A stretch of 64,000 bases of DNA from Promethearchaeia archaeon (GCA_029856105.1 JAHQWH010000189.1:54263-118262), one strand, 5' to 3'. Positions 1,002 to 56,028 are shown, counted from the stretch's first letter. Made by a program: numbers and translations. Notes: generated from the sequence alone by a model not told the origin.

Positions 1002-1041
1002 TTTAGGCAATATTTTTGTTAATATTCATTTTAAAAAAAAT

Positions 1042-2719: not shown

Positions 2720-2834
2720 ATATTCCCATTAATTAAAAGATAAATAGCTAATTAAATTTTTTTTTATTGTGATATTACCTTCAAACTAAATTAATTTAAT
2801 TGTTATTTTAATTTCTCTAAATGAAGATTAACCT

Positions 2835-3401
2835 TTAATTACTTGTGAGTTTAAGGAAATCAGCATCAGTTATAATTCCAATAAATACATTATTTTCTTT
2901 TACTAATACGGCAGAATATTTAATTAATAAATTTGATATGTCTTTAGCGTTCCAATTTTTTTCAACTTCTGGAAAGGGCAATTCTATAATAGTTAAAATA
3001 TCTGCGTTTATTAAATCTGGAGTTGTAGTAATATGTTTCTGAATTTTTTTGGCAGTTATACTTCCGAAATTATGGTTTTTTTCTAAAATCGGTATCTGTG
3101 AAAAATTGTATTTACTCATTAACGTAATAACATCCTTTATGGTCGAATCTGGTGTTATAGATATTATATTTGGAGTCATAATATCTTCTGCGTGCTTTTT
3201 TGAACTTTTTTTCTTCATTCTTTCATTTTCTAGAAATTCGATAATTTTTTTCACTTTAGAATAAGGTGGGTCCATGTCTCCATTTTCTATTCTTGAGATT
3301 GTAGATTGCGAAATATCTAATTTCTCACCTAATTCTTTTTGGCTAATGTTTAATTTTTTTCTTAAATATTTGATTTGAGATAAATTTGGCAAAACTTCCA
3401 T
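2835..3401 (-). CDS. XRE-HTH + CBS-pair transcriptional regulator (COG3620-like)
   Basis: ISQKELGEKLDISQSTISRIENGDMDP HTH followed by two CBS repeats (FSQIPIL, GIITDAD). Confidence 0.9.
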   Translation of the reverse strand: MEVLPNLSQIKYLRKKLNISQKELGEKLDISQSTISRIENGDMDPPYSKVKKIIEFLENERMKKKSSKKHAEDIMTPNIISITPDSTIKDVITLMSKYNFSQIPILEKNHNFGSITAKKIQKHITTTPDLINADILTIIELPFPEVEKNWNAKDISNLLIKYSAVLVKENNVFIGIITDADFLKLTSN

Positions 3402-3437
3402 TTTAGAATGCGTAAAACTTATTTAGTATAATTTAAG

Positions 3438-3464
3438 TGCATATTTCATGCAATATATGCATAT
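3438..3464. promoter_or_regulatory. Putative operator: overlapping TGCA-based palindromes between the HTH-CBS gene and mat
   Basis: TGCAT-N5-ATGCA (3438-3452) and ATATGCATAT (3455-3464) in an otherwise very AT-rich divergent intergenic region. Confidence 0.35.
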
Positions 3465-3553
3465 TATTATCAATAATTATTAATAATTATTATTAATTTA
3501 AAAAAAACATAATAAAATAATTATTTCTATAAATAAGAAAGAGTTTAATCAAA

Positions 3554-4795
3554 ATGTTGAAAATCACACAGGCTGACTTTTTACCTATTGAAAAAAGTAA
3601 ATTTCCTGAAATTTGCGAAAGAAAAGGAATAGGACATCCAGATAGCGTTTGCGATGCCGTTGCTGATGCTTGTTCGAGAGCGTTATGTGTTTACTATTTG
3701 GAACATTTCGATAGAGTGTATCATCACAACGTTGATAAGGCCGCTTTGGTTGGTGGTGTTGCCAAACCTGAATTCGGAGGAGGTATGATCATTCAACCAC
3801 AATATTTTTTAATAGTAGGAAGAGCTATACATCAAATTCTTACAGAATGTGGAACTGAGCATAAATTGGAATATGTACCTGTTGCTACTATTTGTCTTGA
3901 TACACAACGCCAAATACTCGCAAAAATATTTAGAAACCTTGATTTAGCTAGAGATATACAATTCGATTATGCAGTTCGACCAGGGTCTATAGATTTAACC
4001 GGAGTTTTTGACGAGTCTCATCATTCGGAAGAAATTCCCCTCTCAAATGATACAAGTTTTGGAGTAGGATACGCTCCATATTCAGATGTAGAAAAAATAA
4101 CGTTAGAAGCAGAATACCTTATTAATTCTCCGAGTTTCAAGGATAAATGTAAGGGATCGGGTGAAGATGTTAAGGTAATGGTTGAAAGAATTGATAACAA
4201 GGTTGGAATCACCATTGCGGCTGCAATGGTCAGCAAGTACATCAACGATGTTGATGAGTATATTAATTATACAAATCAAATTAAAGACGCTGTATTAGAT
4301 TTAGCGGCTAAAATCATCCCAGAACGCGAAGTCACTTGCCAAGTAAATGTAGCAGATATTCTAAAGAAAGAACTTTTGTTTCTTACCATAACGGGCACAT
4401 CGGCTGAGGCAGGCGATGACGGCGAAGTAGGACGTGGAAACCGGTCTAACGGTCTAATAACACCTTGCAGAACTATGAGTTTAGAGGCTGTTTGTGGAAA
4501 AAATCCAATTAATCATGTAGGTAAAATCTACAACATTTTAGGAACGGAGATCGCCAGAGAAATTTATAAGAGAGGAGAAGGTGACATTTTAGAGGCACAT
4601 GTGAAGCTTTTATCCCAAATCGGGCGCCCAATTACGGATCCATGGGTAAATTCGATAGAGTTAATTCCTGCTGAAAATGTTAATTTTGCTAGTATTGAAA
4701 AAATCGCGAAAGAAGTCTCTGAAGAAAAATTGAGCAAGGAGTCCATGATTGATCTAAGGAAGCGATTGATTGCAGGGAAAATACAAGTATTTTAA
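3554..4795 (+). CDS. mat: Archaeal S-adenosylmethionine synthetase
   Basis: ERKGIGHPDSVCD, HHNVDK, NDTSFGVG, GEDVKVM, GRGNR, GKNPINHVGKIYN. Confidence 0.97.
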   Translation: MLKITQADFLPIEKSKFPEICERKGIGHPDSVCDAVADACSRALCVYYLEHFDRVYHHNVDKAALVGGVAKPEFGGGMIIQPQYFLIVGRAIHQILTECGTEHKLEYVPVATICLDTQRQILAKIFRNLDLARDIQFDYAVRPGSIDLTGVFDESHHSEEIPLSNDTSFGVGYAPYSDVEKITLEAEYLINSPSFKDKCKGSGEDVKVMVERIDNKVGITIAAAMVSKYINDVDEYINYTNQIKDAVLDLAAKIIPEREVTCQVNVADILKKELLFLTITGTSAEAGDDGEVGRGNRSNGLITPCRTMSLEAVCGKNPINHVGKIYNILGTEIAREIYKRGEGDILEAHVKLLSQIGRPITDPWVNSIELIPAENVNFASIEKIAKEVSEEKLSKESMIDLRKRLIAGKIQVF

Positions 4796-4921
4796 TTTTT
4801 AAGTTTAGAATAGTAAAATTTTTTTATTCTTTTTTTATTAAATAATAGATCTGAATAGTAAAAAATAACTAGAAATTTTTGTGTAAGAAATTAAATAAAT
4901 TAAAATTGATGTGAGTTAAGT

Positions 4922-5176
4922 CTGGGATTAGAGAAGTGGATAAATCCAGAAGAAACTAAAAAAAAGCCAAAGATAAAAGATGGTACTAAAAAACCTAAAA
5001 AGACTGAATCTAAGTCTAAAGAAATAAAAGGTACAATAGGACCAAAAAATTTATTGAAATTCTACTTAGTGTGTCCAAAGGCAAAATGTAAATATCAAAA
5101 GACGATAAGAAAGAAAGAGTTAACAGATAAAGATAAAATCTGCCCTAGATGTAAAAGTATAATGAAAATCAAGTAA
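4922..5176 (+). CDS. Small basic zinc-finger protein (84 aa), probable CTG start; absent from ORF track
   Basis: (M)GLEKWINPEETKKK...CPKAKC...CPRC.. stop; in-frame TGA at 4907 and no ATG/GTG/TTG before the N-terminal half; GTGAG just upstream. Confidence 0.7.
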   Translation: MGLEKWINPEETKKKPKIKDGTKKPKKTESKSKEIKGTIGPKNLLKFYLVCPKAKCKYQKTIRKKELTDKDKICPRCKSIMKIK

Positions 5177-5179
5177 ATT

Positions 5180-5431
5180 TTAATTAGAAATATCTTGTTC
5201 TAAAATGTCTTTATCTGGAAGGTTCTCTAGATCAAATTGAGAATCACAATTAGGGCATCGGTCTTTCTTTTTACTATATTTCAAGATGAGATAAATGAAA
5301 ATCCCTAACCCGCAAGTTAGGATAACCATGAATGCCAATATCTCATGATAAATGTGTTCAAAATTCTTGCGTCTTAGTACGATTTTTTGTTCACATGTAG
5401 GACAATAAACAATTTTTTTCCCCGTAATAAT
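5180..5431 (-). CDS. LITAF-like zinc-ribbon membrane protein (about 83 aa), probable ATT start; absent from ORF track
   Basis: IVYCPTC - hydrophobic segment (EILAFMVILTCGLGIFIYLIL) - DRCPNC; in-frame TAA at 5450-5452 with no ATG/GTG/TTG before the first CxxC. Confidence 0.75.
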   Translation of the reverse strand: MITGKKIVYCPTCEQKIVLRRKNFEHIYHEILAFMVILTCGLGIFIYLILKYSKKKDRCPNCDSQFDLENLPDKDILEQDISN

Positions 5432-5680
5432 CGACCGTTTTTTGTTATTTTATATAATTAGATAGGTAAATTGTTAATTTAATTATTTTGTGTTATAATT
5501 GAAAAATTCAAAATTAAAGCTAAAAAGCTATTTATTCTTCATTTTTTCAATTTGTAATTTTATATTGAAATAAAAAAAAAATGTAATAAACATAGGCTAA
5601 ATATTATTAATGTTGAATTTTATATCATTAATAATATTTTTCAAATTAAAAATTAAAACAAATTAGAAAAGGTTTTAACA

Positions 5681-6628
5681 ATGCCAATTTGTTATCATTG
5701 TGGAGTGGAAGTCCCTGAAACATTCAACTGTACTAAATGTGGTCAAAATTATTGTTCTTTACATAAAAATCCTATTGATCACGAATGTAATATTGTAATC
5801 GAAAGTCAACATTTACAACAATATCAACAATCACCTCCTACTTATGTTGAAAGCTCTCAAATTCCGTTTTCTCAACAAGAGCATATGTATCAGCAACAAT
5901 TAACTCCAAGCGAAGTGCGTGGAACGACAGATGGGACTTATACGTGGTATCGGCAAGAACAAACAGTTCCAGAAAACGCTTTCGATCCAGACTCTGGAAT
6001 CTCGTTCAAGGGTATATTTCTGGCTCATAAATCTGAATTAACTCATTTCTTAATTGCAGGGATAATGATATATGCCATAGGATTGTTGAGCTTTTATAAC
6101 AGTTTAGGCCCTACATATTTTTGGACTTTATTTGTACTTGCTGCTTTTTATGTGACTGCTTTTCTCTTTCACGAATTAGGGCACCGCCAAGTAGCTGTTC
6201 ATTTTAAATTGCAAACAAAATTTAGATTACTTACATATGGTTTGCTGATGACATTAATCTCTCTTGGAAGGTTTGCTTTACCTGGAGCGGTTGTCGTTTT
6301 AGGTCTTGACAAGATTAGTAGAAAAACGGGATTATGTAAAGCAGCAGGTCCTTTCGTAAATTTGGTGTATGGCACACTATTGTTTCTAATTTCATTTATA
6401 GTTCCAAGGTCATTATATCCACTGAATTATATCTTTTGTATAGGAGCTTATTTAAATTTCATGTTAGGATCATTCAATATGATCCCTTTTGGAATTTTGG
6501 ATGGGCAAAATATATGGAAATGGAAAAAGAAAGTATATTTTGGATTGATTGGGTCATTAGTACCATTGCTTATTATAACAATGGTTATTACAAATACTTC
6601 CTTAAGTCTAAATCTCTATCATCCATAA
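5681..6628 (+). CDS. AN1-type zinc finger fused to M50 (site-2) intramembrane metalloprotease
   Basis: N-terminal CxxC..CxxC...C..H.....H.C; HELGH; AAGP; NMIPFGILDG. Confidence 0.88.
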   Translation: MPICYHCGVEVPETFNCTKCGQNYCSLHKNPIDHECNIVIESQHLQQYQQSPPTYVESSQIPFSQQEHMYQQQLTPSEVRGTTDGTYTWYRQEQTVPENAFDPDSGISFKGIFLAHKSELTHFLIAGIMIYAIGLLSFYNSLGPTYFWTLFVLAAFYVTAFLFHELGHRQVAVHFKLQTKFRLLTYGLLMTLISLGRFALPGAVVVLGLDKISRKTGLCKAAGPFVNLVYGTLLFLISFIVPRSLYPLNYIFCIGAYLNFMLGSFNMIPFGILDGQNIWKWKKKVYFGLIGSLVPLLIITMVITNTSLSLNLYHP

Positions 6629-6774
6629 CCTAAACGATAAAACCATAACTAGTTTAATTTCTTTAAAGTTCAATATTCTCTTGAAAGTCATAAAAAATTT
6701 TAAAAAAAATTATGTATGATGATAGTTTTAAAACATTAAATTAGATAAAATAAAGCGATTTTAAAAAAAAATTT

Positions 6775-10170: not shown

Positions 10171-10590
10171 ATCAGTCTAAGACAATACAATACGGAATTA
10201 GGATTGCTCATAGATAAGATTGTTAAAGTATATCTAGAAAAAGACAAATTCTTTGTTGGACAATTAAAAGGCGTTTCGGAAGATAGTAACCTGATTTTAA
10301 ATAATGTGAAAAATGAAAAAGGTAAAACATTCCCAAAAATGTTGATAAGAAGTAGTTACTATCATTTTGTAACGGTAGAAGAGGAGCCGTTCCCAATGCA
10401 AGCTTTGGCAAATAGAATTGCTACAATTTTTTCAAAAGGACATGTGAACTATATTGACGATCAAAATATTATATCCATTTTGAATGGTAAAATCATTGTA
10501 GATGAGAACGGAGTGAGAGGGACTGGTCCTTCTGCTGATCGCGTAAAGAAGATATACGATCAATTTAATCTTGATTTAGAAAAGGACTAA
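10171..10590 (+). CDS. SmAP3-type Lsm RNA-binding protein (Sm fold + C-terminal extension), probable ATC start
   Basis: Sm1/Sm2-like GQLKGV..SNLILNNV and C-terminal V.E.GV.G.GP.ADR typical of SmAP3; N-terminal helix SLRQYNTELGLL lies upstream of the called TTG (10204); AAGGTG 7 nt before ATC. Confidence 0.85.
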   Translation: MSLRQYNTELGLLIDKIVKVYLEKDKFFVGQLKGVSEDSNLILNNVKNEKGKTFPKMLIRSSYYHFVTVEEEPFPMQALANRIATIFSKGHVNYIDDQNIISILNGKIIVDENGVRGTGPSADRVKKIYDQFNLDLEKD

Positions 10591-10617: not shown

Positions 10618-11139
10618 TTAAGTAGATTCTTTTCCTTTGAACGCGTTTAATAAGTTTTTTAGGTTTAAGTCTTGAATTATATTTTTCAAGATTGCTTTTC
10701 CTAATGGGGTAATTTTTATTATATCTAGATCTTCTATTTTTCTTAAATAATCATTTTCAATTAGGAACTCAACATCAGTTGCCCAGACTTCCTTAAAAAT
10801 ATCTTTTAGATCACTAATCTTTATGTTTTCATCTACTTCCTTGCTGAGGGCAAGTATCAAAGCCAAAGTACCATATTGAGAAGGTGTAATGCTGTCATCT
10901 TTACCCTCAGAGGTTAAAACGTAGAACTTTTGATCTAAAAAATTAGATTTTATAAATTCAAAACCAATTTTCTTTAAATTTAAATAAACTGTGCTTATAA
11001 TTTGTTCAAAATCGAAATTTATACTTAAATTCTGGAGATCTTCTTCTCTAATCATTTTTTGGGGGCTTGTTAAAATAATTTTAGTAATATTTTTTACTGC
11101 TTCTTCAAAATTTGTAATTTCCATATTTTTTCTTATCAA
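10618..11139 (-). CDS. Tandem winged-helix protein, KITE-like (ScpB/MukE/Nse1-Nse3-like)
   Basis: FEQIISTVYLNLKKIGFEFIK..FYVL, TPSQYGTLALILAL, VEFLIENDYLRK..IKITPLG; 4-bp overlap with the SMC-like gene. Confidence 0.55.
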   Translation of the reverse strand: MIRKNMEITNFEEAVKNITKIILTSPQKMIREEDLQNLSINFDFEQIISTVYLNLKKIGFEFIKSNFLDQKFYVLTSEGKDDSITPSQYGTLALILALSKEVDENIKISDLKDIFKEVWATDVEFLIENDYLRKIEDLDIIKITPLGKAILKNIIQDLNLKNLLNAFKGKEST

Positions 11140-12785
11140 CTCTCTTCAACTTTTAAAACTTTTAAATTCTCAATTTCTTTTTTTAATTCTAAATTTGACA
11201 TAAGAAAGATTAGTTTAAAATTAGTTAGATTATCATTATTTTCTAATATTGGTAATATTTTTCTAATAGTTCTGTAAATGGAACCACCTTTATTATAAAC
11301 ATTAGGAATGAATAAATTTGAAAACAAGATATTTTCAGATTTCATAAGGATTTTGATAGAGATGAAAAAAGCAATTATGAAATAAATTTTTTCGGGAGTT
11401 GTTAATCCTTCAAAATTGACTTTCTCTTTGTAATTTCGTTTAAATTTTGTTTGGATAAGAAAAGCCATGTTATCGTTGCTAACTACGAGCTGATATATAA
11501 TTTCTAGATGAATTTCTTTTAAGAAGCTATTCAATAAAATTTCAAGATCGTTAATAATAATCTCAAAATTCTTAAAATTTTCAAAGCTTTTAGCAACTTC
11601 TTTTTCATTAGTAGAAATAATGATTTTATCACTACCAATTTTCAAAATATTATCAAACTCTCTCAATTTTTCAATTATTAGAGTTAAGTCGCTCAAATTA
11701 TGAACATTAAATGAATCTTCTGGAATCGAAATTTTATCTAACTCCGAGGTCGTTTTTCCAATCTCATCTTCAATCTCCACGGATGGTCGTACGGGTTTTA
11801 ACATTAAATTTTCAGGTTCTTCCTCTGGAGAGTCTGTATTTGTTTTTTTGTTTTTTTCGTAATTAGATTTTACTTCCTTTATTCTTTTTTCGTCCTTTTT
11901 TATTGTTTCTAAGAGTTCCTCATAATCATTTTTATATATTTCATAATGAGGAGTAAGATTTTCTTGTTTCACTTTAGTTTCATTTGTTCTTGATCGAATT
12001 TGTTTAATTTCGTATTGAGCTTCTTTCGCTTTTTTCTGAAGAGCTCGTATCTTTTCGGCGTTAGTAAGATTTACATTAATTCCTAATTTCGCAATTGAGT
12101 CGTTGTTTTTTTCATTTAAAGAACCCTCGATTTGTCGCGTAATTCTATTAATTTGATTAAAGCATTCTTTTTTAGTTTCGTTTAGATCTCGAATCTGTAG
12201 ATCATAATTTCTTAATTCTTTTTTTATTTGATCGATCTGGTTTTTTTGCTGAAAGTAATCCTCTTCTAAATAATTCAATTCTTTCCTATTTTTTATTATA
12301 GCCTCATTTAATTTTTTAATTAAGTCAATAATTGATGCTAGATCGCTTGATTTTTTGTAAAGTTTTGATAATTCTAATTCTTCAGATAACTGATTCTTTT
12401 TTTGCGTTAAGAAGATATATCTGAAAATTTTCAATAATATTTCAGTAAGCGAGTTAAAGTCAGAAAAAGTTTCTAAATTATATTCCATAATTTTGCGATA
12501 GTTAGATAAATAATCCAATATATTTAGAGATTTATCTAAGTTAGAAAAATTAATGTTTTGGTTTTGAAAAAGATTAATAAATTTTTTAACAGGGATTAAC
12601 TCTAAATTTTCGATAATTTCTAAGAAATCTTTATTCTTATATTGATTTAGAGCATCTTTTTTGAATTTACCAAGAATTAATGTAAATCTATCTTCTATTA
12701 ATATTTCTTTCGTTCCAACTGAAAGCTTAAAATTATTTAGACTAATAGGTAAATTCACTCCTGATTCTTTTTTAATCAGATTCAA
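11136..12785 (-). CDS. SMC/Rad50-like coiled-coil protein with degenerate ABC head
   Basis: N-terminal ISLNNFK...FTLILG without Walker A; long central coiled coil; C-terminal GLTTPEK..IIAFFISI at the signature position and ILFSN at Walker B. Confidence 0.65.
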   Translation of the reverse strand: MNLIKKESGVNLPISLNNFKLSVGTKEILIEDRFTLILGKFKKDALNQYKNKDFLEIIENLELIPVKKFINLFQNQNINFSNLDKSLNILDYLSNYRKIMEYNLETFSDFNSLTEILLKIFRYIFLTQKKNQLSEELELSKLYKKSSDLASIIDLIKKLNEAIIKNRKELNYLEEDYFQQKNQIDQIKKELRNYDLQIRDLNETKKECFNQINRITRQIEGSLNEKNNDSIAKLGINVNLTNAEKIRALQKKAKEAQYEIKQIRSRTNETKVKQENLTPHYEIYKNDYEELLETIKKDEKRIKEVKSNYEKNKKTNTDSPEEEPENLMLKPVRPSVEIEDEIGKTTSELDKISIPEDSFNVHNLSDLTLIIEKLREFDNILKIGSDKIIISTNEKEVAKSFENFKNFEIIINDLEILLNSFLKEIHLEIIYQLVVSNDNMAFLIQTKFKRNYKEKVNFEGLTTPEKIYFIIAFFISIKILMKSENILFSNLFIPNVYNKGGSIYRTIRKILPILENNDNLTNFKLIFLMSNLELKKEIENLKVLKVEES

Positions 12786-13809
12786 AATGATTTTTGAATT
12801 CTTTGTATTCTTTTTCTTTTTTTTTCTTTCTTTCTCTGATTAATTCGATAGGGTCTTTATCATTATCTTTTTGATTCAAATAATTTTCCTTAAAATTTTT
12901 ATCAAATTGCAATTTAAACTTTTGAATTTTCTCTGAAACTTCTTCTGAAAGTTCTAATTTCTTTTGATTTCCATTTACGATCACATCAGTTAATTTTTCA
13001 CGCTTTTTTTTTCGTTCTCTTCTTTCAAATTCTTTATCTGAGAATTTCAAGTAGTTTGTATAGGTTTCTGTTTGTTCTTCTTGTTTTTTTTTTAATTCTT
13101 CAATTTCACGTTTTTCTTTTCTTTTATTTACAAATTTTTTTTTTGCTAATAATTCTTCTTCCGTTAGTTTATTCTCAACAGTTTGTAAGAAATCTTCATA
13201 AGTTAACTCATGATTTAAATAGAATTGTTGTTCAAATTCTTTAATTAAAGAAGAATCTATACTGTCAGGAAATCTACTTAATTCGTCTTTTAATCTTTTA
13301 TCTATTAAATTACTATAATATTTTTTTAATTGTTCGACAGAACTTAAAAAGAGAGAATTTCGGTTTAGAGCATCTATTAATTCTAACCATTGATTTATTC
13401 CAATGGAAGAAATATAAGATGTTTGACTAATAATTTTACTAATTTTTCTATTTTCAATTAAATCTAAACCAATAATTCTAGTATTAATTTCATTTAAACT
13501 AATTAGCTTTAGATGCTCTTTAAAGTCATTTTTGTATTTATTAAGAAGTTTGTTTTGTAGGTCTAGAAATCTATTTATGTTATTGTTTGAGATCTTTTCT
13601 AAGTTTTGGTAGATATTACTTAGAAAATTTGTTAATTCGTTTAATTGATTACTAAACGATTCATCGTCGAAATATTGGGATATTAATCGTTTTTCTTCTT
13701 CTAATTTCTCAGCGATATTAGTTATTTGGTTAACTTTTCCTTGAAGATTTTCTATGGGAGATGTATAATCTCTAATTTTTTCGAGGTTAAATAATTGATT
13801 TTTCATCAT
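12772..13809 (-). CDS. Hypothetical helical/coiled-coil protein with highly charged C-terminus
   Basis: 345-aa ORF in operon; E/K-rich helical composition. Confidence 0.75.
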   Translation of the reverse strand: MMKNQLFNLEKIRDYTSPIENLQGKVNQITNIAEKLEEEKRLISQYFDDESFSNQLNELTNFLSNIYQNLEKISNNNINRFLDLQNKLLNKYKNDFKEHLKLISLNEINTRIIGLDLIENRKISKIISQTSYISSIGINQWLELIDALNRNSLFLSSVEQLKKYYSNLIDKRLKDELSRFPDSIDSSLIKEFEQQFYLNHELTYEDFLQTVENKLTEEELLAKKKFVNKRKEKREIEELKKKQEEQTETYTNYLKFSDKEFERRERKKKREKLTDVIVNGNQKKLELSEEVSEKIQKFKLQFDKNFKENYLNQKDNDKDPIELIRERKKKKEKEYKEFKNHFESD

Positions 13810-13856
13810 TTTTAGCTAAAAATTATATTTCGAAATTAGTATCTTCTAATACGTTA

Positions 13857-14975
13857 TTATATCTCTGGAGGACTAAATAATTTTTTATTATTATTTTCAG
13901 TTCTTTTCGTTCCTGTATAACTTTTATTCGGATTGCTTAAAACATCTTGTCTCTCAACATGAATTGCAGTGCCTCCAACTAATTTTAATGAATTGTAAAA
14001 ATGTTCATAAGTTAAACGTTCTGAATCAATAGCCTTCAATAAAGATACTTTCGTACCCCTTTCGATATCTGAGCCAGAATATCCAATAGTTAATTCGAGG
14101 AAGCCCTTTGCTTTGCTCTTTTTGTTGAGTTCATCCCATAATATATCATCTTTGAACTCAGTGATGGTATAACCTAATTTACTTTCTAAACTTATTGTAA
14201 TTGCCTTAAGTCTTTCGTATTCGTCATTTAAATTAGCTAAAATCGATTTATCAACCCCAATTTTTGCATTTTCTACCTTATTAAGGAAAGATTCAATGAT
14301 CTGCTTTCTTACATGAAAATCGGGGAATTCAAAGCTAAAATGAAAGGTAAATCGTCTCCAAATAGCTGAATCTAATTGGTTTTGATGATTTGTTGCCCCA
14401 AATATAGCTAAAGGTACGCCTTGATAATTTATTCTATCGATTGCTTGTAAAAATGATATAACCGCGCGTTTAATTTCACCAACTTCGTGAATGTTAGATC
14501 TTTCAGAACCAATAGAATCAATTTCATCGAAAAATAATATAAAAGCACCTCTTTCTTTCGCGATTTCAGCTGCTAAATCCACAACATTTCTAATTTGTTT
14601 AATTGTATCTCCTAATAATGGTGATACCAATCTATCAGTTTCTACTACACATATTGGAATTTCATAATGCTTTGCAAATCCTCTCGTAAGGGAAGTTTTA
14701 CCTGTGCCTGGAGGGCCATATAAAAGAACTGTTAAGCTGGGATTAAGTTTTGCTCCTTTTAACTGTTCCGTAAATTCATTATATTTTTTTAAAGCTTTGA
14801 AAAAATCATGTAATATTTCTTTTTTAACCTCGTTTCCTAAAATAGCGTCAATATTATCTTGAATGTCGAAAGGAAAATACACTGCTCCATATTTACCCAT
14901 CCTGTTTTTAATTACCTCGTCGGTATATGTTTTTATTTCTTCCACTTCTTCATTTGAATTGCTAATTTTTCTCAT
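13857..14975 (-). CDS. AAA+ ATPase (classic clade, single domain)
   Basis: YGPPGTGKT, ILFFDEID, GATNH..LDSAIWRRF, GYSGSDIE. Confidence 0.93.
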   Translation of the reverse strand: MRKISNSNEEVEEIKTYTDEVIKNRMGKYGAVYFPFDIQDNIDAILGNEVKKEILHDFFKALKKYNEFTEQLKGAKLNPSLTVLLYGPPGTGKTSLTRGFAKHYEIPICVVETDRLVSPLLGDTIKQIRNVVDLAAEIAKERGAFILFFDEIDSIGSERSNIHEVGEIKRAVISFLQAIDRINYQGVPLAIFGATNHQNQLDSAIWRRFTFHFSFEFPDFHVRKQIIESFLNKVENAKIGVDKSILANLNDEYERLKAITISLESKLGYTITEFKDDILWDELNKKSKAKGFLELTIGYSGSDIERGTKVSLLKAIDSERLTYEHFYNSLKLVGGTAIHVERQDVLSNPNKSYTGTKRTENNNKKLFSPPEI

Positions 14976-14991
14976 CTCATTTTATTGTAAT

Positions 14992-16308
14992 TTAATTATT
15001 TTTTCTTTCTTTATCAAATTTTTCACAATAATCTGCTATTTCATTAATAAATTCTTTAAGATTATCAATTTGAGAACCAATAAAGTTAAAAATTTCTTTT
15101 CTATATTGAGGGGAATCTCTTATCTTTAGTTTATCTAAACCTAAATAATTAGGAAAACATACGAGTTTCATTAAATAAGGTAGAACTTTCTCATTTGTTT
15201 GTAAATCTTTGAATATTGGATAAAAAATATTTTGATCAGATAATTTCCATTTTAAAATTCCCATGTAAATTAGAAAGGCAAAATTCATTGAAATCCAATT
15301 TATCAATTCTTTTGATAAAAATCCTCTCCTTTGTGAAGCTAACGCTAAATAATACAAAATTAAAGTTTCATTGCTCAATTTTGGTAATAATCTTATTTTT
15401 TCATCGGATTGTTTATTCTCACGTATGAAATTATTTTCTAGCATTATATCTACTAAATCTTCTTTTGGTGCAATGAAGATTTCGTCAATAACACGGAGTC
15501 CAATGCGCTCGGCAATTTGGTTTATAGCTTCTTCCTCAGCATTAGCGATTGAATCAATATATGGGTTAAAAACTTCAGTTTTTAATATCATAGGAAGTTC
15601 TTGATTACCTCTTTCAGGGAATTCTCCAAAATTTGGATCTAAATTGTAAAGAGAAGTTATATTGTTGATTAATTGATAAACTTTTGGAGACATACCAGGA
15701 ATTTCAAAAAAATCTGATCGTTCTAATTTTTCCCGATAATAAGTATGGGGTTGGAGTATATGTCGTTGGCACTCATATAAATCCGAAGAGTATTTTAGTA
15801 ATTTGTTATAAATAATCATTATATTTCTTCCTCGGGAAAATAATCTTTCTTCTATGAACTTCGTTAAAACATATAAAAATGTTTTTTCTAAACTTGATTC
15901 GTCTGGATTGGTAATATGCCGTAAAACATTCAATGCACCAATGGATTCGTACAAAAATTCAATGATATAATCTTTTATATCAATTATTGGAATGGTTTCC
16001 CTATACTTCAATATAAAATCTTTAATTATATCATAAACATTTGATCTATACATCGTATAAAATTCTGATAACGCTCTTACTTTTCGGATATTTCTTTTTT
16101 CTTCTTCTTGGCGAATTTTATCCAGGATTTCAATATCTAGTAGTAAGTCAGCGTCTAATTCGATAATTTTTCTCCTTGTTTCTCTAAGAATTGGGCGCAT
16201 ATGACTTATAAAAGTTAAATATCTAGGTAGAATATCAGTCCACTTCTCCCTTTTTCTACCTGATTTTACCATTCTAGTAGATTTTTTTTTGTAACTCATA
16301 GTTTTCAC
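14992..16308 (-). CDS. Hypothetical protein (438 aa) in operon
   Basis: Long ORF, 16-18 bp spacing to neighbours, no recognised motif. Confidence 0.8.
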   Translation of the reverse strand: MKTMSYKKKSTRMVKSGRKREKWTDILPRYLTFISHMRPILRETRRKIIELDADLLLDIEILDKIRQEEEKRNIRKVRALSEFYTMYRSNVYDIIKDFILKYRETIPIIDIKDYIIEFLYESIGALNVLRHITNPDESSLEKTFLYVLTKFIEERLFSRGRNIMIIYNKLLKYSSDLYECQRHILQPHTYYREKLERSDFFEIPGMSPKVYQLINNITSLYNLDPNFGEFPERGNQELPMILKTEVFNPYIDSIANAEEEAINQIAERIGLRVIDEIFIAPKEDLVDIMLENNFIRENKQSDEKIRLLPKLSNETLILYYLALASQRRGFLSKELINWISMNFAFLIYMGILKWKLSDQNIFYPIFKDLQTNEKVLPYLMKLVCFPNYLGLDKLKIRDSPQYRKEIFNFIGSQIDNLKEFINEIADYCEKFDKERKNN

Positions 16309-16326
16309 TCTTTTTTTTTAACTATA

Positions 16327-17475
16327 TTAACTTTCATCGTATCCTACTACTATTTCCGTGAATATATTAGCGATCTCCACGAAAATTGGTATTTCTACAC
16401 GCACCAACTCTCCGAGAATCCACTTGTTTACATCTTTCAACAAGAAACGTATCTGATTCATTATTTTTTTATTAATTTCTGAGTCTATTATTTTGGTTAA
16501 CCATAAACCTCCTCCTAACCTATAAGCAATAATTTTTATTAATGGTTCAAAAAGAGGGTCTAAGACTTGTCTCATCATCCACGATTTTGGAATAACACTC
16601 ATATTATCTTCGTTAAAATTAGGATCGTTGAGAATGGGGTTCGTCTCATCAACAGATAATTTTGGCATAAAGCTTAATAATAGAATTAAAGCAAATATAG
16701 CAGAGATGCCGTTTATTGTATAAGAGCCCCCAATCTTCTTAATATCGTCTCTATTTATTGAAACATTAGCTAAAAACATACAAATAAAAACATTTCTGTC
16801 GAAGGCATCAGACACATAAGCATAACCTAATTCCTCATCAATTATTAAATATTTTTCTTCAAGGATTTCAATAATATCATCTGGAAATGTGTAAAAAGTG
16901 TAAACTTTCTCTTCACTTCTTCTAACATCCTTTTTTACAACTAACTCTTTTGAAACCAAACCAAACATTTTAACAAGTTCTTCAAGTTGGTTTTTTATGT
17001 AATGACGAGGTTTATTTGGATCACCAAACATAGCATAAAATTGATGATCTATAATATTAAAATCATTTCTTTTACTAAAGGCTTCTACCATCCTATTTAT
17101 TATGGGGCCTTGTGTTCCTGAAGCGATTGCTTTCGCTTTTGATGTTACAAATCCATTTAATAACTCGTTTATAATAAAATCTTGTTCATGACTTCTAGAT
17201 TTTAATATTTTATCAAAAGCTTCAGAAAAAATTTTTGTATTTGGAAAAAATGCGTTTTGAATTTTATCATTTATTGATTTTATAAAAATATCTCCATTAT
17301 TCTTTGGAAAGTGGAGCTTCATATTATTCAGTCTTTGTACTAGAGCCTCTTTTGCCCCTGGAATGTTTTCCGCATCTCTTTTTTCCAATTCATCGATTGC
17401 TTTTTCTAACCCTTTATTAAATTGCTGAAGTAATTCTTTCCAAGTAGGATTTTGAATTTCTGCCATTTTTTTCAC
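16327..17475 (-). CDS. Hypothetical protein (382 aa), possible central winged helix
   Basis: Long ORF; YIKNQLEELVKMFGLVSK...YTFYTF resembles a wHTH recognition helix and wing. Confidence 0.75.
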   Translation of the reverse strand: MKKMAEIQNPTWKELLQQFNKGLEKAIDELEKRDAENIPGAKEALVQRLNNMKLHFPKNNGDIFIKSINDKIQNAFFPNTKIFSEAFDKILKSRSHEQDFIINELLNGFVTSKAKAIASGTQGPIINRMVEAFSKRNDFNIIDHQFYAMFGDPNKPRHYIKNQLEELVKMFGLVSKELVVKKDVRRSEEKVYTFYTFPDDIIEILEEKYLIIDEELGYAYVSDAFDRNVFICMFLANVSINRDDIKKIGGSYTINGISAIFALILLLSFMPKLSVDETNPILNDPNFNEDNMSVIPKSWMMRQVLDPLFEPLIKIIAYRLGGGLWLTKIIDSEINKKIMNQIRFLLKDVNKWILGELVRVEIPIFVEIANIFTEIVVGYDES

Positions 17476-17499
17476 TATAGATTATAATTATTTTAAAAT

Positions 17500-18453
17500 T
17501 TACCATTTTAATTCTGCTACAATTTTCTTTAAGGCATCAATTAATGGATTTAAAAGTTTTTTATCATAAAGGTTCGGAGAACTTACGCCTCTTTGGGCTT
17601 TCCAACCCATTTGTGTTCCCCCTCCCATTTCTCTTTTTCCATATTTTAGAATATTGCTTAGGTCTCGCATCCACCAATAAAATCTTAACCATTTTTTATT
17701 TGGATTATCTTTAGAATGAATAACTGCCAAAGCTTTCCATTCTCCCATTAACCACTTTACTGTAATACCGCTTACAGGTAAATAATAATTAATAGGAAAA
17801 TTAGTTTGAAAACTTAAATCGAGATCTTTAGAAATTATATTAAAGATTGGCTGGTTAAACCCTTCTAATATGACAATTTCTCCACAATGTTGACATTCAT
17901 AATGAGATTTCATTTTTTTCATTTTTTTTTGACATTTTGGGCATGTCCTGTTTTCAATAATTCTATATTTAATAATGTCTAAGTTTTTTTCTTTTTCTAA
18001 GGTTTCTTTTGTTTTAGGTTCTCGCTTTCCGTACTTTCCTTTCCAAGTCCATATCTCGTCGAAAGAGTCATCAATTTTTTCTAATGCGGAAATAAAGTTT
18101 TTCAGAACATCCTTATCATAAATTTTAAACATCCCCGCATGTTGATAACTTTTCCACCAAGAAAGTCTTACGTATTTCTCATTCTTTAAGTAAGCACTAT
18201 GACAAATCAAGACGGCGAATAAACGAGTATCACCCTTATTTATCACAATCCCTTTTTCTGCTATTTCATATTGTTTGTTTAAACTTACATTTTTATGAAA
18301 CCACTCTCCATCTAGAAAAGTTCCTATAGGGGATTCTTCTTTTATTTTTTCTACATCTATACTTTTTTCCTTAATGATTTTCTTACATTGTGGGCATTGA
18401 AAAATTCCCGTAATTAAGGGTTCCATTTCAACATTGCATGCAGAACATTTCAT
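17500..18453 (-). CDS. Duplicated [Zn ribbon + PC4-like] putative nucleic-acid-binding protein
   Basis: Two CxxC...CxxC ribbons, each followed by a similar unit (KYVRLSWWK...IYDKDVLKNFISALEKI and KWLRFYWW...LYDKKLLNPLIDALKKI). Confidence 0.7.
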   Translation of the reverse strand: MKCSACNVEMEPLITGIFQCPQCKKIIKEKSIDVEKIKEESPIGTFLDGEWFHKNVSLNKQYEIAEKGIVINKGDTRLFAVLICHSAYLKNEKYVRLSWWKSYQHAGMFKIYDKDVLKNFISALEKIDDSFDEIWTWKGKYGKREPKTKETLEKEKNLDIIKYRIIENRTCPKCQKKMKKMKSHYECQHCGEIVILEGFNQPIFNIISKDLDLSFQTNFPINYYLPVSGITVKWLMGEWKALAVIHSKDNPNKKWLRFYWWMRDLSNILKYGKREMGGGTQMGWKAQRGVSSPNLYDKKLLNPLIDALKKIVAELKW

Positions 18454-18455
18454 AT

Positions 18456-19556
18456 TTAGTCATCATTACTGGTTATAATATATCTTTCGTAATCTAAATT
18501 TAATAATTTTAATTCTTTCTTTGTAAATCTTGTAATCTTACTATTAATTTTTACCACATCTTCTCTAAGATCAATTAAAGCATTTTGAATATTATTTACA
18601 ATATTTTCTTCGTTAAAAGAAACTTTCTCGATGAATTCAAGATAATTGTACTTTTTTCCTTTTCCTGAATAATATAATTTAATTTCTGATAATTCAGTTT
18701 CAATTTGTTTCAATTGATATCTATATTTTAATAAAGATAATAAATTAGAATTCCAATTTTTAAAGATTGGATTTTCTTTATCAATTCCATCGTAATTAAA
18801 TTTCTCTGGAAGCTCTACTTTTTCATCTTTAAGAAATTGGATAATATCTTTATTTTCTTCAATAGCTTTATTTATTTTTCTAAAAACGATTTTATTTTTC
18901 AATTTAGGCTCAAAAATTTCAATAAATTCATCAATTTTGTCCTTAATCTCCAAAAATCTTTGGTAAAACCCTTCGACTGTAATCTCAATTTTAATAGCTT
19001 GAAAAATATTTCCATACTGGTCTAAAATATAATAAAGATCATCTGATATTTTAAAATCATGATCACCTATTTCAAAAACAAATGGGTGGATAATGTTACC
19101 TTTTTCGCATCTAACTCCTTTTAATTTATTTAAAGCCAGATTAAAATTCCGCTTGGTTAGAAACTTAAATTTTTTATTTATTAGTAAAAATAGTGTATGA
19201 TCTGGTACTGAAATTGTATTATTTTCTATCGTTACTGTCTCTTCTCCTAACCGGATTATAAAATCACCGTCTTTTTGTTCAAATTCTCTTATACTTCGTA
19301 TATTTTTAATTAAACCTAAATCAATCGCAATTTCAATAAATTCTTTACTCCAAAAGCTTATAATATTATCTTTATATATCTCATCTAATATTAGGACTCT
19401 CTCATATGATTTTATGAGTTCTTGATTACTAAAATCCTTGAATAAATCATTTCTGATGACATATAAAAACAAAATGATATATCTCATATCAATGTCGTCA
19501 AGAACTGTCTCTATCAAGTTCTTATCGTGATCCATCGACAAACCCGTATGTTCCAT
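18456..19556 (-). CDS. Hypothetical protein (366 aa), wHTH-like N-half + helical bundle; first gene of operon
   Basis: Long ORF, 2-bp gap to next gene; LTKRNFNLALNKL...FKISDD wHTH-like segment followed by coiled helices. Confidence 0.75.
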   Translation of the reverse strand: MEHTGLSMDHDKNLIETVLDDIDMRYIILFLYVIRNDLFKDFSNQELIKSYERVLILDEIYKDNIISFWSKEFIEIAIDLGLIKNIRSIREFEQKDGDFIIRLGEETVTIENNTISVPDHTLFLLINKKFKFLTKRNFNLALNKLKGVRCEKGNIIHPFVFEIGDHDFKISDDLYYILDQYGNIFQAIKIEITVEGFYQRFLEIKDKIDEFIEIFEPKLKNKIVFRKINKAIEENKDIIQFLKDEKVELPEKFNYDGIDKENPIFKNWNSNLLSLLKYRYQLKQIETELSEIKLYYSGKGKKYNYLEFIEKVSFNEENIVNNIQNALIDLREDVVKINSKITRFTKKELKLLNLDYERYIITSNDD

Positions 19557-19751
19557 GCCTAAAATCCACTTGCTATATTTAAAATGAATAATTTATATCA
19601 GTTAAAAAGAGTAATTAAATAAATTAAACATCCCTAAAAAATTTTTCGATTTCCGTCATTCTACGCATTGAAAAAGCTAAAATTTTTTAGTTTTAATCTC
19701 TTTTTACTTAATAATTAAGAAACTTAGTATTTATTAATCAGATGATTTTTT

Positions 19752-20365
19752 ATGGGAAGGAGAAAAAGAAAGCAACAATCTTATAAAAGAGTCAAAACAG
19801 TCCCCAAAATTTTTACTTGCCCAAACAGGTAATTATGGTTTTCCCATTTACCTTGGATTGTGGGGAAAAGGCAATAAAAGTAGAAAATTTACGAAAAAGT
19901 GTTATAGCTACAGTGAAATGTGGTCATTGTGGTTTAACAAAGGAAGTTCTGGTTAATTCCATATCAGAACCTGTTGATGCTTTTGGAGATTTTATTGATA
20001 TTCATTATGCTGATCAAGAACTTCAGAGATTAGAAAAACGCATTGAGAAATTAATAAAACAAAACGAATGGGGGGAACTTGCATTATCCTACTCAATTTT
20101 ATCGGATATTTGTAAACTTAAAGTTGTTCAAGCTTTAGAAGACGAAGATAAAGTAGATCTTGATGAGGTTAATAAATGGAAAATTAAAGTTGAAGAATAT
20201 AAAAGGCTTGAAAAAGATGCTCTACTTCAATTAGACACGCTTGAATTGGAAAAGGGTATTAGAACAGACGACGAATCTTTATTTTCAGAGCACGATGAGA
20301 GTGATATGAAAAAAGAAAAGAAAATTGAAGATATCTTTGACGATCCTGGTTTTCTTGAATTTTAA
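19752..20365 (+). CDS. elf1: Transcription elongation factor Elf1 with C-terminal extension; split gene join(19752..19826,19859..20365), 193 aa
   Basis: Exon 1 MGRRKRKQQSYKRVKTVPKIFTCPN + exon 2 CGEKAIKV...KCGHCGL...EPVDAFGDFID gives the Elf1 basic N-terminus, both CxxC knuckles and the EPVD..(G)DFID motif. Confidence 0.9.
19827..19858 (+). other. 32-nt bulge-helix-bulge intron in elf1 mRNA
   Basis: CCAA/TTGG 4-bp central helix, 3-nt bulges ACA and ATT, intron stem GGTAA/TTACC + ATGG/CCAT, exon stem CTTGC/GTGGG + TTTT/AAAA; removal restores the frame and CPNC. Confidence 0.88.
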
Positions 20366-20379
20366 ATAAATTGATTTCT

Positions 20380-22119
20380 TTAATTAAGCACTTTGTGTTC
20401 AATTCTCTTTTTAACGGTAAGCGGAATATGTTTCCAAATCGGAAGTTTTAAGATTAAATTGAAAAAGCGAGTTCGATTCAATTTTTTTTTTAAAATAAAG
20501 TAACTCCAGTTGTAAAATGCTAATTTATTAAAGAGATTCATTAAGTTCACACCAAATAGATTATATCTTGAAGTTAGAAAACTTGCTAAATATGCACCTA
20601 ATCGCTTATTTCGTGGGATTGATTCAGGATATACTGATTCTGATAGAGGTCTATTGAAAATTTCATAAATTGAAAAAATGGGTATAAGATCATCTAAATA
20701 TTCATTTACAATTATATTATAATTTGAGTTCTCTAACGATAAAGCAGAAAGCTCATTTAATTTTTTTAAGGCAAGATTAAATTGTTGTTCCTTAAAATAA
20801 AGCCACATAGTTCCCATTGTATCTCTCAATTTCACTAACTCATCGATAATTTCCTTTTCTTTAAAAGAAAATGAGTTTTTTTTCTCGAAATGTGTTATAT
20901 AAAGTAAAAATATTGAATAAATAGAGGTATTATCAAATTCAGTTAAAATATTATTTTCCTTAGCCTTTTGGAGATCAATTTCATTATTTGATTTATTATG
21001 GATAGAATGAGTATATAATGGTATTGTCCATAACATTTTCAAAATTTTTTCCATCAGTCGAATATGGAGCGTATATTCTTCAATTTTTGAAAATTTTTGA
21101 GATCGCTTCAAACTAGGAACTGAAAAGGTTTTAGATTGATCGATTCTAAATTTAAATCTATTAATTCTCTTTAATTTATTAATCAATTCTTTTCTTTGTT
21201 TTTTATTTATTAAAATCTTTTCAATTAGCAACTTCTTTATTGATATTAACTTCTTTATGTAGATATAGAAATCTACATTGTATTTTTTTACAATATAATC
21301 GTGCGTTATTAAAGGAATGCTTATTGTTTGTTTTTGGGTTTTAGTCTCAATACTCATTGCATGGTCCCCTATAGTATATGAAAATGTAATTGTTTCAAGA
21401 GCTTCTTCTAAACGGGAATATACACCTAACTTTTTTGGATCGTGTGTGAAATAACCGTGCAAGAGAGTATCGATTCCTTTAAACATATTATTTTCATATT
21501 TTGAAATTATAACAGATTCAAATTCACCAGGATGATGCCTTTTAATGCCGTACCGTTTACCCACAAGAAAGATTGCTTGATTAGCTCTATGACATATGGT
21601 ATGAGACCACCTAAACAATGGTTCTAATATTTTTCCAATTGTTAATAAATATCCATAAAATTCTGGTCCAAAATAGATAGGGAATCCAAAACCTCGAGAT
21701 GTTGAAAATGTAAATTGGAAAACATTCCTTGTTTTCTCACCTTTTAGAAATCCGGGAAATTTATAGTGTAAAGCTAATCTGGGATAAAGTGCTCCCAAAC
21801 CCAAATTCATCCACATCTCAAATAGAATTATGCTGTCAGGAAATTTGAATGAATCTTTTTTGATTAAGAAATCATCTCTCGATGTGTTTAACGCAGTTGG
21901 AATAGCGTAGAGCCAATCTTTATTGCTTTCTAAAGGATTTAGGCGGTTTTTAAACTTTTTTACCAACAATCGTTTTTTCTGGTTTTGTACTATAGCTTTT
22001 TTATAATAATAGTTATTCAGAACTCTAAAAAGAGAAGGAATTTCTAGGATTTGTCTTTGAAGATCATGAACTACTTTTACTTTAATAACTCCTGAATTCT
22101 TATTTGAGGATTGCTGCAC
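20380..22119 (-). CDS. Hypothetical protein (579 aa)
   Basis: Long uninterrupted ORF, no recognised motif. Confidence 0.75.
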   Translation of the reverse strand: MQQSSNKNSGVIKVKVVHDLQRQILEIPSLFRVLNNYYYKKAIVQNQKKRLLVKKFKNRLNPLESNKDWLYAIPTALNTSRDDFLIKKDSFKFPDSIILFEMWMNLGLGALYPRLALHYKFPGFLKGEKTRNVFQFTFSTSRGFGFPIYFGPEFYGYLLTIGKILEPLFRWSHTICHRANQAIFLVGKRYGIKRHHPGEFESVIISKYENNMFKGIDTLLHGYFTHDPKKLGVYSRLEEALETITFSYTIGDHAMSIETKTQKQTISIPLITHDYIVKKYNVDFYIYIKKLISIKKLLIEKILINKKQRKELINKLKRINRFKFRIDQSKTFSVPSLKRSQKFSKIEEYTLHIRLMEKILKMLWTIPLYTHSIHNKSNNEIDLQKAKENNILTEFDNTSIYSIFLLYITHFEKKNSFSFKEKEIIDELVKLRDTMGTMWLYFKEQQFNLALKKLNELSALSLENSNYNIIVNEYLDDLIPIFSIYEIFNRPLSESVYPESIPRNKRLGAYLASFLTSRYNLFGVNLMNLFNKLAFYNWSYFILKKKLNRTRFFNLILKLPIWKHIPLTVKKRIEHKVLN

Positions 22120-45437: not shown

Positions 45438-45592
45438 TTTACCTTAATGAAAACATTCAAGGAATATAGAACAGAAACGACTACAGAAAAAGTTATAAAT
45501 TATTATAGATTTTATCCATTACAATTTTACTTAAATTTTAACTTTTTAACAAGAATTAAAACATTTGATCTCATTATTATTCTATTAGCACA

Positions 45593-45696
45593 GGGCCATT
45601 AGCGCAGGCAGGTAGCGCAGCAGGCTTTTAACCTGAAGGTCGTGGGTTCGATATGCTCGCTCGAAAAGATCGGGTGCGAAATTCCCACATGGCCCG
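45593..45696 (+). tRNA. tRNA-Lys(TTT) with 30-nt T-loop intron (45653..45682, position 59/60)
   Basis: GGGCCAT/ATGGCCC acceptor stem, CAGG-CTTTTAA-CCTG arm; BHB TTCG/CGAA with bulges ATA and ATT; splicing yields GTGGG-TTCGATT-CCCAC. Confidence 0.93.
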
Positions 45697-45839
45697 CTAA
45701 TTTTTTACTCTTGGTAAAGGCTGAGTCAAAATTAATTATTAAAAGAAAAGTTTTGCATGAAATAATTAATTGAGTATGCATTAAAGGTAAATATTAAGAT
45801 AGATCGTTAAAACGAATAAACTCTCTTACAGCTAAAAAA

Positions 45840-55959: not shown

Positions 55960-56028
55960 TCTTCCTTTTTACAAACATATTAAATATTTATAACTTTATT
56001 TTTATGTAAATAGTTGCAGTAATTTAAT

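Follow-up and report, generated by a model that had tools for sequence, protein, structure and literature searches.

Complexes built on SMC (structural maintenance of chromosomes) proteins are universal chromosome organisers. To our knowledge, all described SMC complexes run on the ABC ATPase of the SMC protein itself, and none has a dedicated classic AAA+ partner. Asgard archaea are the prokaryotic lineage closest to eukaryotes. Here, we analyzed an eight-gene operon at positions 10618-19556 of a 64,000-nucleotide stretch of Promethearchaeia archaeon DNA (GCA_029856105.1 JAHQWH010000189.1:54263-118262, hereafter the window), in which an SMC-derived gene stands beside genes for a predicted kite protein and a predicted AAA+ ATPase. 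The closest described systems are eukaryotic Smc5/6-Nse1-Nse3-Nse4 and archaeal 'SMC5/6-related' operons encoding an SMC, a kleisin and a kite (10.1101/2024.01.07.573240; PMC8665677). In some Asgard archaea, a third kite paralog near Nse3 is co-localised with further SMC and kleisin genes (10.1101/2024.01.07.573240); that report makes no mention of an AAA ATPase or of a degenerate SMC. With a probability of roughly 60%, we read the operon of the window as encoding a cut-down descendant of an SMC5/6-like complex that is specific to Asgard archaea and linked to an AAA+ protein.

The operon comprises eight co-oriented open reading frames (ORFs) on the minus strand of a window of about 30% G+C. 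From g1 to g6, the intergenic gaps are 2, 24, 18, 16 and 47 nt; these are followed by overlaps of 14 nt (g6/g7) and 4 nt (g7/g8). In order of transcription, with product lengths in amino acids (aa), the genes are:
g1, 18456..19556, minus strand: 366-aa orphan that opens the operon
g2, 17500..18453, minus strand: 317-aa protein with two zinc ribbons
g3, 16327..17475, minus strand: 382-aa protein, the best-conserved orphan
g4, 14992..16308, minus strand: 438-aa orphan, likely a paralog of g3
g5, 13857..14975, minus strand: 372-aa predicted classic-clade AAA+ ATPase with a single AAA module
g6, 12772..13809, minus strand: 345-aa protein with a helical N-terminal region and a lysine/glutamate-rich (K/E-rich) tail
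g7, 11136..12785, minus strand: 549-aa predicted SMC-derived pseudo-ATPase
g8, 10618..11139, minus strand: 173-aa predicted tandem winged-helix kite, Nse1/Nse3-like
The first-pass annotation of the window had described eight co-oriented genes with gaps ranging from overlap to 47 bp, and the ORF coordinates match it exactly. It had also taken the products of 317, 372, 549 and 173 aa for a twin zinc-ribbon protein, a classic-clade AAA+ ATPase, an SMC-like protein and a tandem winged-helix, KITE-like protein, and all four assignments were borne out by the analyses presented here. Its winged-helix labels for g1 and g3 and its PC4-like label for g2 gained no such backing and are putative.

An AlphaFold2 model of g7 was built from a 17-sequence alignment, with a predicted local distance difference test score (pLDDT) of 83. 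The model is composed of an N-lobe (approximately aa 16-82), an antiparallel coiled coil (83-425) and a C-lobe (426-549): N-terminal strands lead into helices 83-219 and 242-314, which run antiparallel, and further helices precede a C-terminal beta/alpha lobe. The coiled-coil helix of about 137 residues has an estimated length of about 20 nm, and its apex is formed by 22 residues (aa 220-241). The top Foldseek matches all belonged to the SMC superfamily (probability 0.99-1.0) and included Rad50 (7.8e-9), JetC, the Pyrococcus Smc head (4e-6), MukB, Smc5/6 and LmuB. The model suggests that g7 consists of an SMC/Rad50-type ABC head fold carrying a short coiled coil. In library scans (Pfam, PADLOC and NCBIfam), g7 matched only the coiled-coil segments of SMC, Rad50 and JetC models. 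Neither an SMC_hinge match in Pfam nor a CxxC motif at the apex was found, i.e. neither a hinge nor a zinc hook. The Walker A, signature and Walker B motifs are not kept in any of the 17 g7 orthologs, and the forms of the sister family (f2) are still more degenerate. In g7 of the window, the corresponding positions, compared in part with the full-size SMCs described below, read as follows:
12654..12680, minus strand: degenerate P-loop 'LILGKFKKD' (aa 36-44), which replaces GxxGxGK[ST] in the ortholog alignments
11388..11405, minus strand: 'LTTPEK' (aa 461-466), a putative ABC signature remnant, invariant in the window's family (f1) and aligned to HSSGQKQ of full-size SMCs
11310..11330, minus strand: 'ILFSNLF' (aa 486-492), the Walker-B position without an acidic residue, aligned to ITAIDEF of full-size SMCs
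The P-loop region is in register with 'TVLTGK', just before the P-loop of the full-size SMC (E 0.03, not significant alone). Against three close genomes, the ratio of non-synonymous to synonymous substitution rates (dN/dS) of g7 is 0.29-0.36, and the gene is therefore under purifying selection and not in decay. Its annotated start at 12785 is a TTG codon. Because a TAA stop interrupts the reading frame of the G008 ortholog at codon 6, and because conservation sets in only around residue 17, the true start is probably about 10-20 codons further downstream; the starts of distant orthologs lie 10-30 codons further in.

The AlphaFold2 model of g8 (21 sequences; pLDDT 86) shows two winged helices. 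In the Foldseek ranking, MAGE-G1/Nse3 (5e-5), Nse1 (TM 0.52-0.56), archaeal ScpB, JetB and MukE stood ahead of ESCRT-II and MarR-type regulators, and the kite fold was recovered by two independent aligners. These models point to g8 being a tandem winged-helix kite, closest to Nse1/Nse3. An ESM Atlas look-up gave a weak lead for g8 only (MAGE 0.78), and a large word-indexed search with the g8 profile returned close 'hypothetical protein' relatives only and no remote ones. The dN/dS of g8 is 0.03-0.06, indicating strong constraint.

Operons with full-size SMCs were found in related lineages. The same neighbourhood of the complete f2 genome G032 carries homologs of g1, g3, g4 and g5, followed by a 1,057-aa ABC/SMC protein with a P-loop and by proteins of 322, 313 and 176 aa, of which the 313-aa protein has a weak Nse4_C match. 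The genome G318 carries the same full-size set; among the order's 121 genomes, no case besides G032 and G318 was found. Further full-size operons are located in distant loci, whose source names are Candidatus Helarchaeota and Promethearchaeota metagenome-assembled genomes (MAGs); their gene products, in aa, are:
L058: g1-like gene not in the locus; g3-like 350; g4-like 408; AAA+ 314; SMC 1200; partners 279, 280 and 175
L064: g1-like 420; g3-like 359; g4-like 457; AAA+ 330; SMC 1072; partners 308, 321 and 178
L068: g1-like 392; g3-like 386; g4-like 402; AAA+ 378; SMC 1075; partner 289, then the end of the contig
L070: g1-like 381; g3-like 373; g4-like 407; AAA+ 343; SMC 1053; partners 292, 281 and 162
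The same module is present in L066 and L060, whose contigs break off either at the AAA+ gene or directly behind it. The genes g1, g2, g3 and g4 form a module with g5, and in related lineages this module precedes a full-size SMC and three partners.

The full-size SMCs keep GxNGSGKS, SSGQ and DE together with a hinge-like segment, and one of them passes the Pfam SMC_N threshold. When their profile was compared with PDB sequences, the best matches were Smc6 (6e-27), Smc5 (1e-23) and archaeal Smc (4e-21), with cohesin and condensin SMCs at 1e-11 or weaker. The three partners are a protein of about 300 aa with winged-helix hints, a candidate kleisin and, last, a kite homologous to g8. The middle partner is a kleisin by inference; a search of PDB and Pfam with its profile gave one sub-threshold Nse4_C match (E 1.3e-3). 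The families of g1, g3, g4 and g5 include proteins of the full-size operons (E 1e-49 to 1e-122). BLASTP of g6 and g8 against the G032 partners yielded nothing, and the link of g8 to the last gene of the full-size operons needed profiles (hhalign 97.3%, E 1.7e-11, 139 columns; direct match of the hidden Markov model (HMM) 1.9e-11). The product of g7 aligned with the C-terminal half of the full-size SMCs (hhalign 94.6%, E 6.7e-8, 211 columns). Two of these loci show other features nearby. In L068, a 947-aa NYN-domain gene lies upstream of the full-size operon. L060 contains, at 885-3878 on the minus strand and opposite to the module, a 997-aa SMC_N protein (g7 HMM 1.6e-6), in addition to a truncated ORF downstream of the module, an arrangement unlike that of the other full-size operons.

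In trees of g3 and of the AAA+ protein, the short-SMC operons form one clade (94/98 and 99/99, respectively) among long-branched full-size lineages; the root positions of these trees are uncertain and several branches are long, so that the trees give the order of events in outline only. The short forms are a single clade nested among full-size forms, and a return of intact ATPase motifs once lost is implausible; the short form is therefore the derived one. The same module stands beside motif-intact full-size SMCs, and the association with the AAA+ protein therefore predates the loss of the SMC ATPase. It had been proposed in the first-pass annotation that the AAA+ protein supplies the energy that the SMC head cannot. 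This proposal is supported in part only, because SMCs with intact ATPase motifs are accompanied by the same AAA+ protein; the idea of a replacement for a dead head is weakened, since the partnership is older than the inactivation of the head. The genes of G032 and G318 group with other full-size-type MAG sequences and not with the short type of their own family. The g2 protein of G032 is about 59-60% identical to the standard f2 g2, whereas its g3, g4 and g5 proteins are only 23-37% identical to their counterparts, a contrast that fits replacement, or old paralogy with differential loss.

The product of g5 matched PF00004 with E 2.4e-25 (90 bits against a cut-off of 21.2). Its Walker A motif lies at 14694-14717 and its Walker B motif at 14517-14534. 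Among 15 orthologs from both operon types, GPPGTGKT, (F)FDE.D, ATNH, WRRF and the sensor-2 D..R are invariant; the 15 also have in common a family-specific EVGEIKR segment, and the pore-loop-1 position in their alignment reads 'LLG'. The nearest solved relatives in PDB are VAT, Afg2, Cdc48/p97 and NSF, which are substrate-threading unfoldases. The best library model was IetA/IteA, with 189 bits in PADLOC and, in NCBIfam, 171 bits against an equivalog cut-off of 510. Judged by these motifs, g5 is predicted to be a classic-clade AAA+ protein of VAT/Cdc48 type with all catalytic motifs intact.

Scans of the eight proteins with Pfam, PADLOC and NCBIfam gave names only to the AAA+ protein, the one confident identification, and to the zinc ribbons. 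No match in these three libraries was found for g1, whose family extends to the gene that opens the full-size-SMC operons (jackhmmer E 2e-79 and 3e-76; HMM match in L068). A relation of g1 to g3 or g4 was considered, and none was found by profile comparison. The two zinc ribbons of g2 (CxxC...CxxC at aa 3-23 and 171-190 in Pfam) are each followed by a beta-rich domain, and the cysteines C3, C6, C20, C23, C171, C174, C187 and C190 are invariant. The two halves of the protein align with E 2e-5, indicating an internal tandem duplication, and homologs are present in G032, G318 and L068. An exhaustive profile search with g3 found 42 clusters only among 1.84 billion representative proteins. Comparison of g3 with g4 (hhalign 72%, E 3.5e-5 over 191 columns) and HMM cross-matches in three distant operons suggest that the two are likely paralogs. 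Searches of PDB sequences with the profiles of g7, g4, g3 and g2 gave nothing significant. In a further locus, L063 (Joint Genome Institute (JGI) metagenome contig, 1212-6629), a weakly g3-like gene (347 aa) lies between genes for two proteins of about 710 aa, each with a g4-like domain; no AAA+ or SMC gene was found nearby.

The f2 forms of g6 are 230-271 aa long and are without most of the K/E-rich tail. The gene is lineage-specific, and its dN/dS against three close genomes (0.25-0.39) is indicative of purifying selection. One of the helical proteins of the operon had been expected to be a kleisin or MukF equivalent. The results for g6 did not support this: no kleisin Pfam family matched any of 20 g6 orthologs, the g6 profile had no similarity to the candidate kleisin or to the winged-helix partner of about 300 aa of the full-size operons, and the ESM Atlas gave no usable match. 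The protein is the sole candidate linker of the operon, and any kleisin role of it is putative.

In 10 divergent members of the window's genus, all eight genes and their flanks are kept in synteny, which also extends to further genera of the family and to the sister family f2; the eight-gene arrangement is therefore not due to chance. Identity to the window among the 10 genus members is about 80% for g3 and g4, 70% for g5, 65% for g1, g2 and g8, and only 35-50% for g6 and g7. The g7 gene is present in 23 of the 24 other genomes of the genus, with 35-91% identity. A g4 profile matched 62/68 genomes of family f1 and 6/7 of f2, with no match in about 225 genomes from 28 other families of the phylum. 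With a broad g3 profile, run on 400 genomes of the phylum, the module was found in f1 (118/134), f2 (13/14) and f32 (2/2), and was absent from the approximately 250 genomes of other families sampled. The eight-gene layout is kept intact in f2 (369, 309, 377, 415, 355, 265, 539 and 170 aa), including complete single-contig genomes of 4.3 and 6.0 Mb. The source names of the close relatives are Lokiarchaeota or Promethearchaeota. With synteny at the levels of genus, family and sister family, and with near-universal presence, the cluster has been inherited vertically in one Asgard order and is not a patchy island. This answers a check raised in the first-pass annotation, namely whether the gene order is conserved and the cluster core or patchy: it is core to the lineage. 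Two irregular loci were observed. On contig C4 of G070 (locus L047), g4 (44817-46076) and g3 (54917-56026) are about 8.8 kb apart instead of the usual 18-30 nt, which looks like an insertion splitting the operon. In L046 (G048:C7:13000-30000), g6, g7 and g8 are unrecognisable by tblastn after g5, which is here a 412-aa ORF, and a second Elf1-like fragment lies about 7 kb downstream.

The flanking genes of the window, both outside the system, are as follows:
19817..20365, plus strand: Elf1-like zinc-ribbon gene, divergent from the operon (PF05129, E 2.8e-9), syntenic in all genus members examined
10204..10590, plus strand: Lsm/SmAP gene with an Lsm_C domain (PF14894 and PF01423), syntenic
Both are housekeeping genes.

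Other SMC genes were surveyed in the same lineages. Three paralogous full-size SMCs are encoded in complete f2 genomes: one is canonical (>800 bits), and the other two are of about 1,490 and 1,187 aa. In 13 high-quality genomes of the window's genus, only forms of about 1,487 and 1,160 aa were present, and no SMC exceeded the TIGR02169 (canonical) cut-off. Canonical SMCs (>790 bits) were found in 5/41 genomes of the family, in the genera g14, g16 and g18, which suggests that the canonical condensin-type SMC may have been lost or replaced in this lineage. The window's genome (G000, 92% complete) encodes an SMC of about 1,160 aa with a hinge domain on contig C20 (L056:4729-7929). Because full-size SMC paralogs are present in the same genomes, the mini-SMC operon is an addition to other SMC systems and not the sole one. 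The C20 SMC gene is followed by ORFs of 216 and 186 aa, the latter weakly g8-like (hhalign 39%, E 3e-4). Upstream of it, a 429-aa ORF (L056:8241-9530, minus strand) has no Pfam match; its resemblance to the g5 family, in register with the lid region, is weak (hhalign E 0.0025, probability 12%). If this ORF were an AAA-type partner, such partners would be general to Asgard SMC5/6-like operons.

If the operon is a reduced derivative of an AAA+-linked SMC5/6-like complex, g7 and g8, perhaps with g6 as a linker, could form a passive scaffold that binds or bridges DNA without ATP cycling. A ring of the AAA+ protein, targeted by g1, g3 and g4, would assemble, remodel or strip this scaffold. It might act by threading an unstructured segment, for which the K/E-rich tail of g6 is a candidate handle. 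More tentatively, and with the odds against it, the module of g1-g4 and the AAA+ protein may be an Asgard-born remodeller (a loader, unloader or recycler) of SMC5/6-type complexes that has taken over fully in most Lokiarchaeales, where the SMC without ATPase and hinge would be a passive DNA-binding rod set by an unfoldase. If true, a machine derived from an SMC would here operate in a way for which no SMC complex is known.

Several observations weigh against descent from such an SMC complex or against the role proposed here. The coiled coil contributes part of the 94.6% hhalign probability between g7 and the full-size SMCs; once it was taken out, the C-lobe by itself gave E 7e-4 (137 columns) and the N-lobe a short in-register match with E 0.03, not significant alone, against cross-controls of E 0.45-0.74. 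The sequence link is therefore moderate, and it is backed by the fold and by the gene position. No kleisin feature is detectable in g6, so that a link between the kite and g7 is not explained by it. The divergence of both g6 and g7 is rapid, much more so than that of the other genes (35-50% identity among genus members, dN/dS about 0.3), which an arms race would also fit. The best library match of the g5 AAA domain is the anti-phage IetA family. In L064, the full-size operon lies between an Mrr_cat/NA-iREase1 nuclease gene (3636-4607) and a Cas_Cas02710/Csm6-like gene (19310-20665), a setting that resembles a defence island.

The last three points would suit a role in defence against viruses or plasmids, comparable to Wadjet, Lamassu or the Smc5/6 restriction of extrachromosomal DNA, in which the SMC-like protein and the kite would sense DNA and the IetA-like AAA+ protein would be the effector or switch. 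Partial matches to LmuB and JetC models, given by g7 as well as by the full-size SMCs, the NYN-domain gene beside another full-size operon, and the patchiness of the full-size form in the order (2/121 genomes, grouping with other full-SMC MAGs, as if exchanged) point in the same direction. However, the short form occurs across two families nearly universally, in one copy and at a fixed place between the Elf1 and Lsm genes, and Pfam, PADLOC and NCBIfam scans of the operon revealed no effector, be it a nuclease, a protease, a Toprim protein or another. Moreover, the IetA score is far under the equivalog cut-off (171 vs 510 bits) with no IetS-like subtilase, the SMC-type matches in PADLOC cover coiled-coil or P-loop segments only, and the kite g8 is strongly constrained. 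We therefore regard defence as unlikely. Of the two roles suggested in the first-pass annotation, chromosome organisation or defence, the former fares better: in view of its vertical inheritance, its near-universal presence in two families and its housekeeping neighbours, the likeliest role of the cluster is chromosome maintenance or organisation, rather than mobile defence.

The products might also not form a DNA machine at all, and g7 could instead belong to a cytoskeletal or membrane scaffold that is disassembled by the AAA+ protein, as in NSF-SNARE or Vps4-ESCRT-III, with winged-helix adaptors as in ESCRT-II. The nearest solved relatives of g5 include NSF, and its NCBIfam score for CdvC/Vps4 is 79 bits; ESCRT-II tandem winged-helix proteins are among the weaker structural matches of g8, and DNA binding of the subunits is a prediction only. 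We consider this improbable, as the two-domain matches of g8 are kites (Nse3, Nse1, ScpB, JetB and MukE), well ahead of ESCRT-II, and g7 is modelled with an ABC head fold and not as a simple coiled coil. In the operons of ancestral type, the SMCs are bona fide, their motifs being intact and a hinge-like segment present, and no gene matched a Snf7, Vps or SNARE family in Pfam. On the g8 fold ranking and the g7 ABC head, an ESCRT-like reading (Vps4, Vps25) was rejected. That the eight genes are neighbours by descent only, for example as unrelated sub-operons g1-g5 and g6-g8, appears least credible of all. The largest gap (47 nt) does separate g5 from g6, the g6-g8 part evolves differently from g1-g5, and in G048 g6-g8 are unrecognisable after g5; nevertheless, spacing is tight, with overlaps, throughout, and the pairing of the module with a set of SMC type is seen again, with differing SMC sizes and rearranged details, in six or more highly divergent lineages, which is hard to explain without functional coupling.

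As a derivative of an SMC5/6-like complex, the operon would couple an SMC5/6-like set to a Cdc48/VAT-like motor and to a few proteins without known relatives. In most carriers, the SMC is predicted to be an ATPase-dead, hinge-less stub still under purifying selection, a natural experiment on what an SMC scaffold and a kite can do without ATP. The module is a candidate new class of SMC regulators, and the operon offers a data point on the diversification of the SMC5/6 branch, including Nse1/3-type kites, before eukaryotes; it would be experimentally testable if any carrier is in culture. In line with the first-pass statement that no SMC complex includes a dedicated classic-clade AAA+ ATPase, no searchable paper was found that describes this operon or such a complex. 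New here is the wider range over which the full-size form was found, together with the argument on polarity, the paralogy of g3 and g4 and the estimates of selection.

Among known systems, Wadjet (JetABCD) and Lamassu (LmuACB) likewise combine an SMC-family protein with a kite (JetB) or accessory subunits in one operon, and g7 and g8 structurally match JetC, LmuB and JetB among other SMC and kite proteins. Membership in either system was rejected: PADLOC gave only coiled-coil matches to JetC and LmuB (E 0.004-0.04), with no JetA, JetD (Toprim) or LmuA. In contrast to these systems, the cluster has no recognisable JetA kleisin, g7 is without the ATPase motifs that they need, and the genes belong to the core of their lineage by vertical descent and are not carried on an island. 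The g5 protein has PF00004, Walker A/B, sensor-1, arginine fingers and sensor-2 in common with VAT, Cdc48/p97, Afg2, NSF and IetA. It differs from them in that its one AAA module is framed by short N- and C-terminal regions unique to it, is without the N-domains of Cdc48/NSF, and has 'LLG' at pore-loop-1 in place of an aromatic-hydrophobic-Gly motif. Membership in IetAS was rejected as well (NCBIfam IteA, 171 against 510 bits; no peptidase family match for any operon gene).

The likeness to Smc5/6-Nse1-Nse3-Nse4 is threefold. The predicted tandem winged-helix kite g8 has its best matches in Nse3/MAGE-G1 and Nse1; the full-size SMCs at the position of g7 best match Smc6 and Smc5, and their partners show winged-helix hints, weak Nse4_C similarity and a g8 homolog; and g7 is modelled with an SMC-type head and an antiparallel coiled coil. 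However, g7 is half-size and without hinge, Walker A, signature and Walker B, and the operon of the window has a single kite gene and no recognisable kleisin. The window's genome also has the separate hinged SMC of about 1,160 aa on contig C20. Finally, in contrast to Smc5/6, a single operon here combines these proteins with an AAA+ ATPase whose catalytic motifs are intact and with four proteins that have no counterpart in described SMC complexes.

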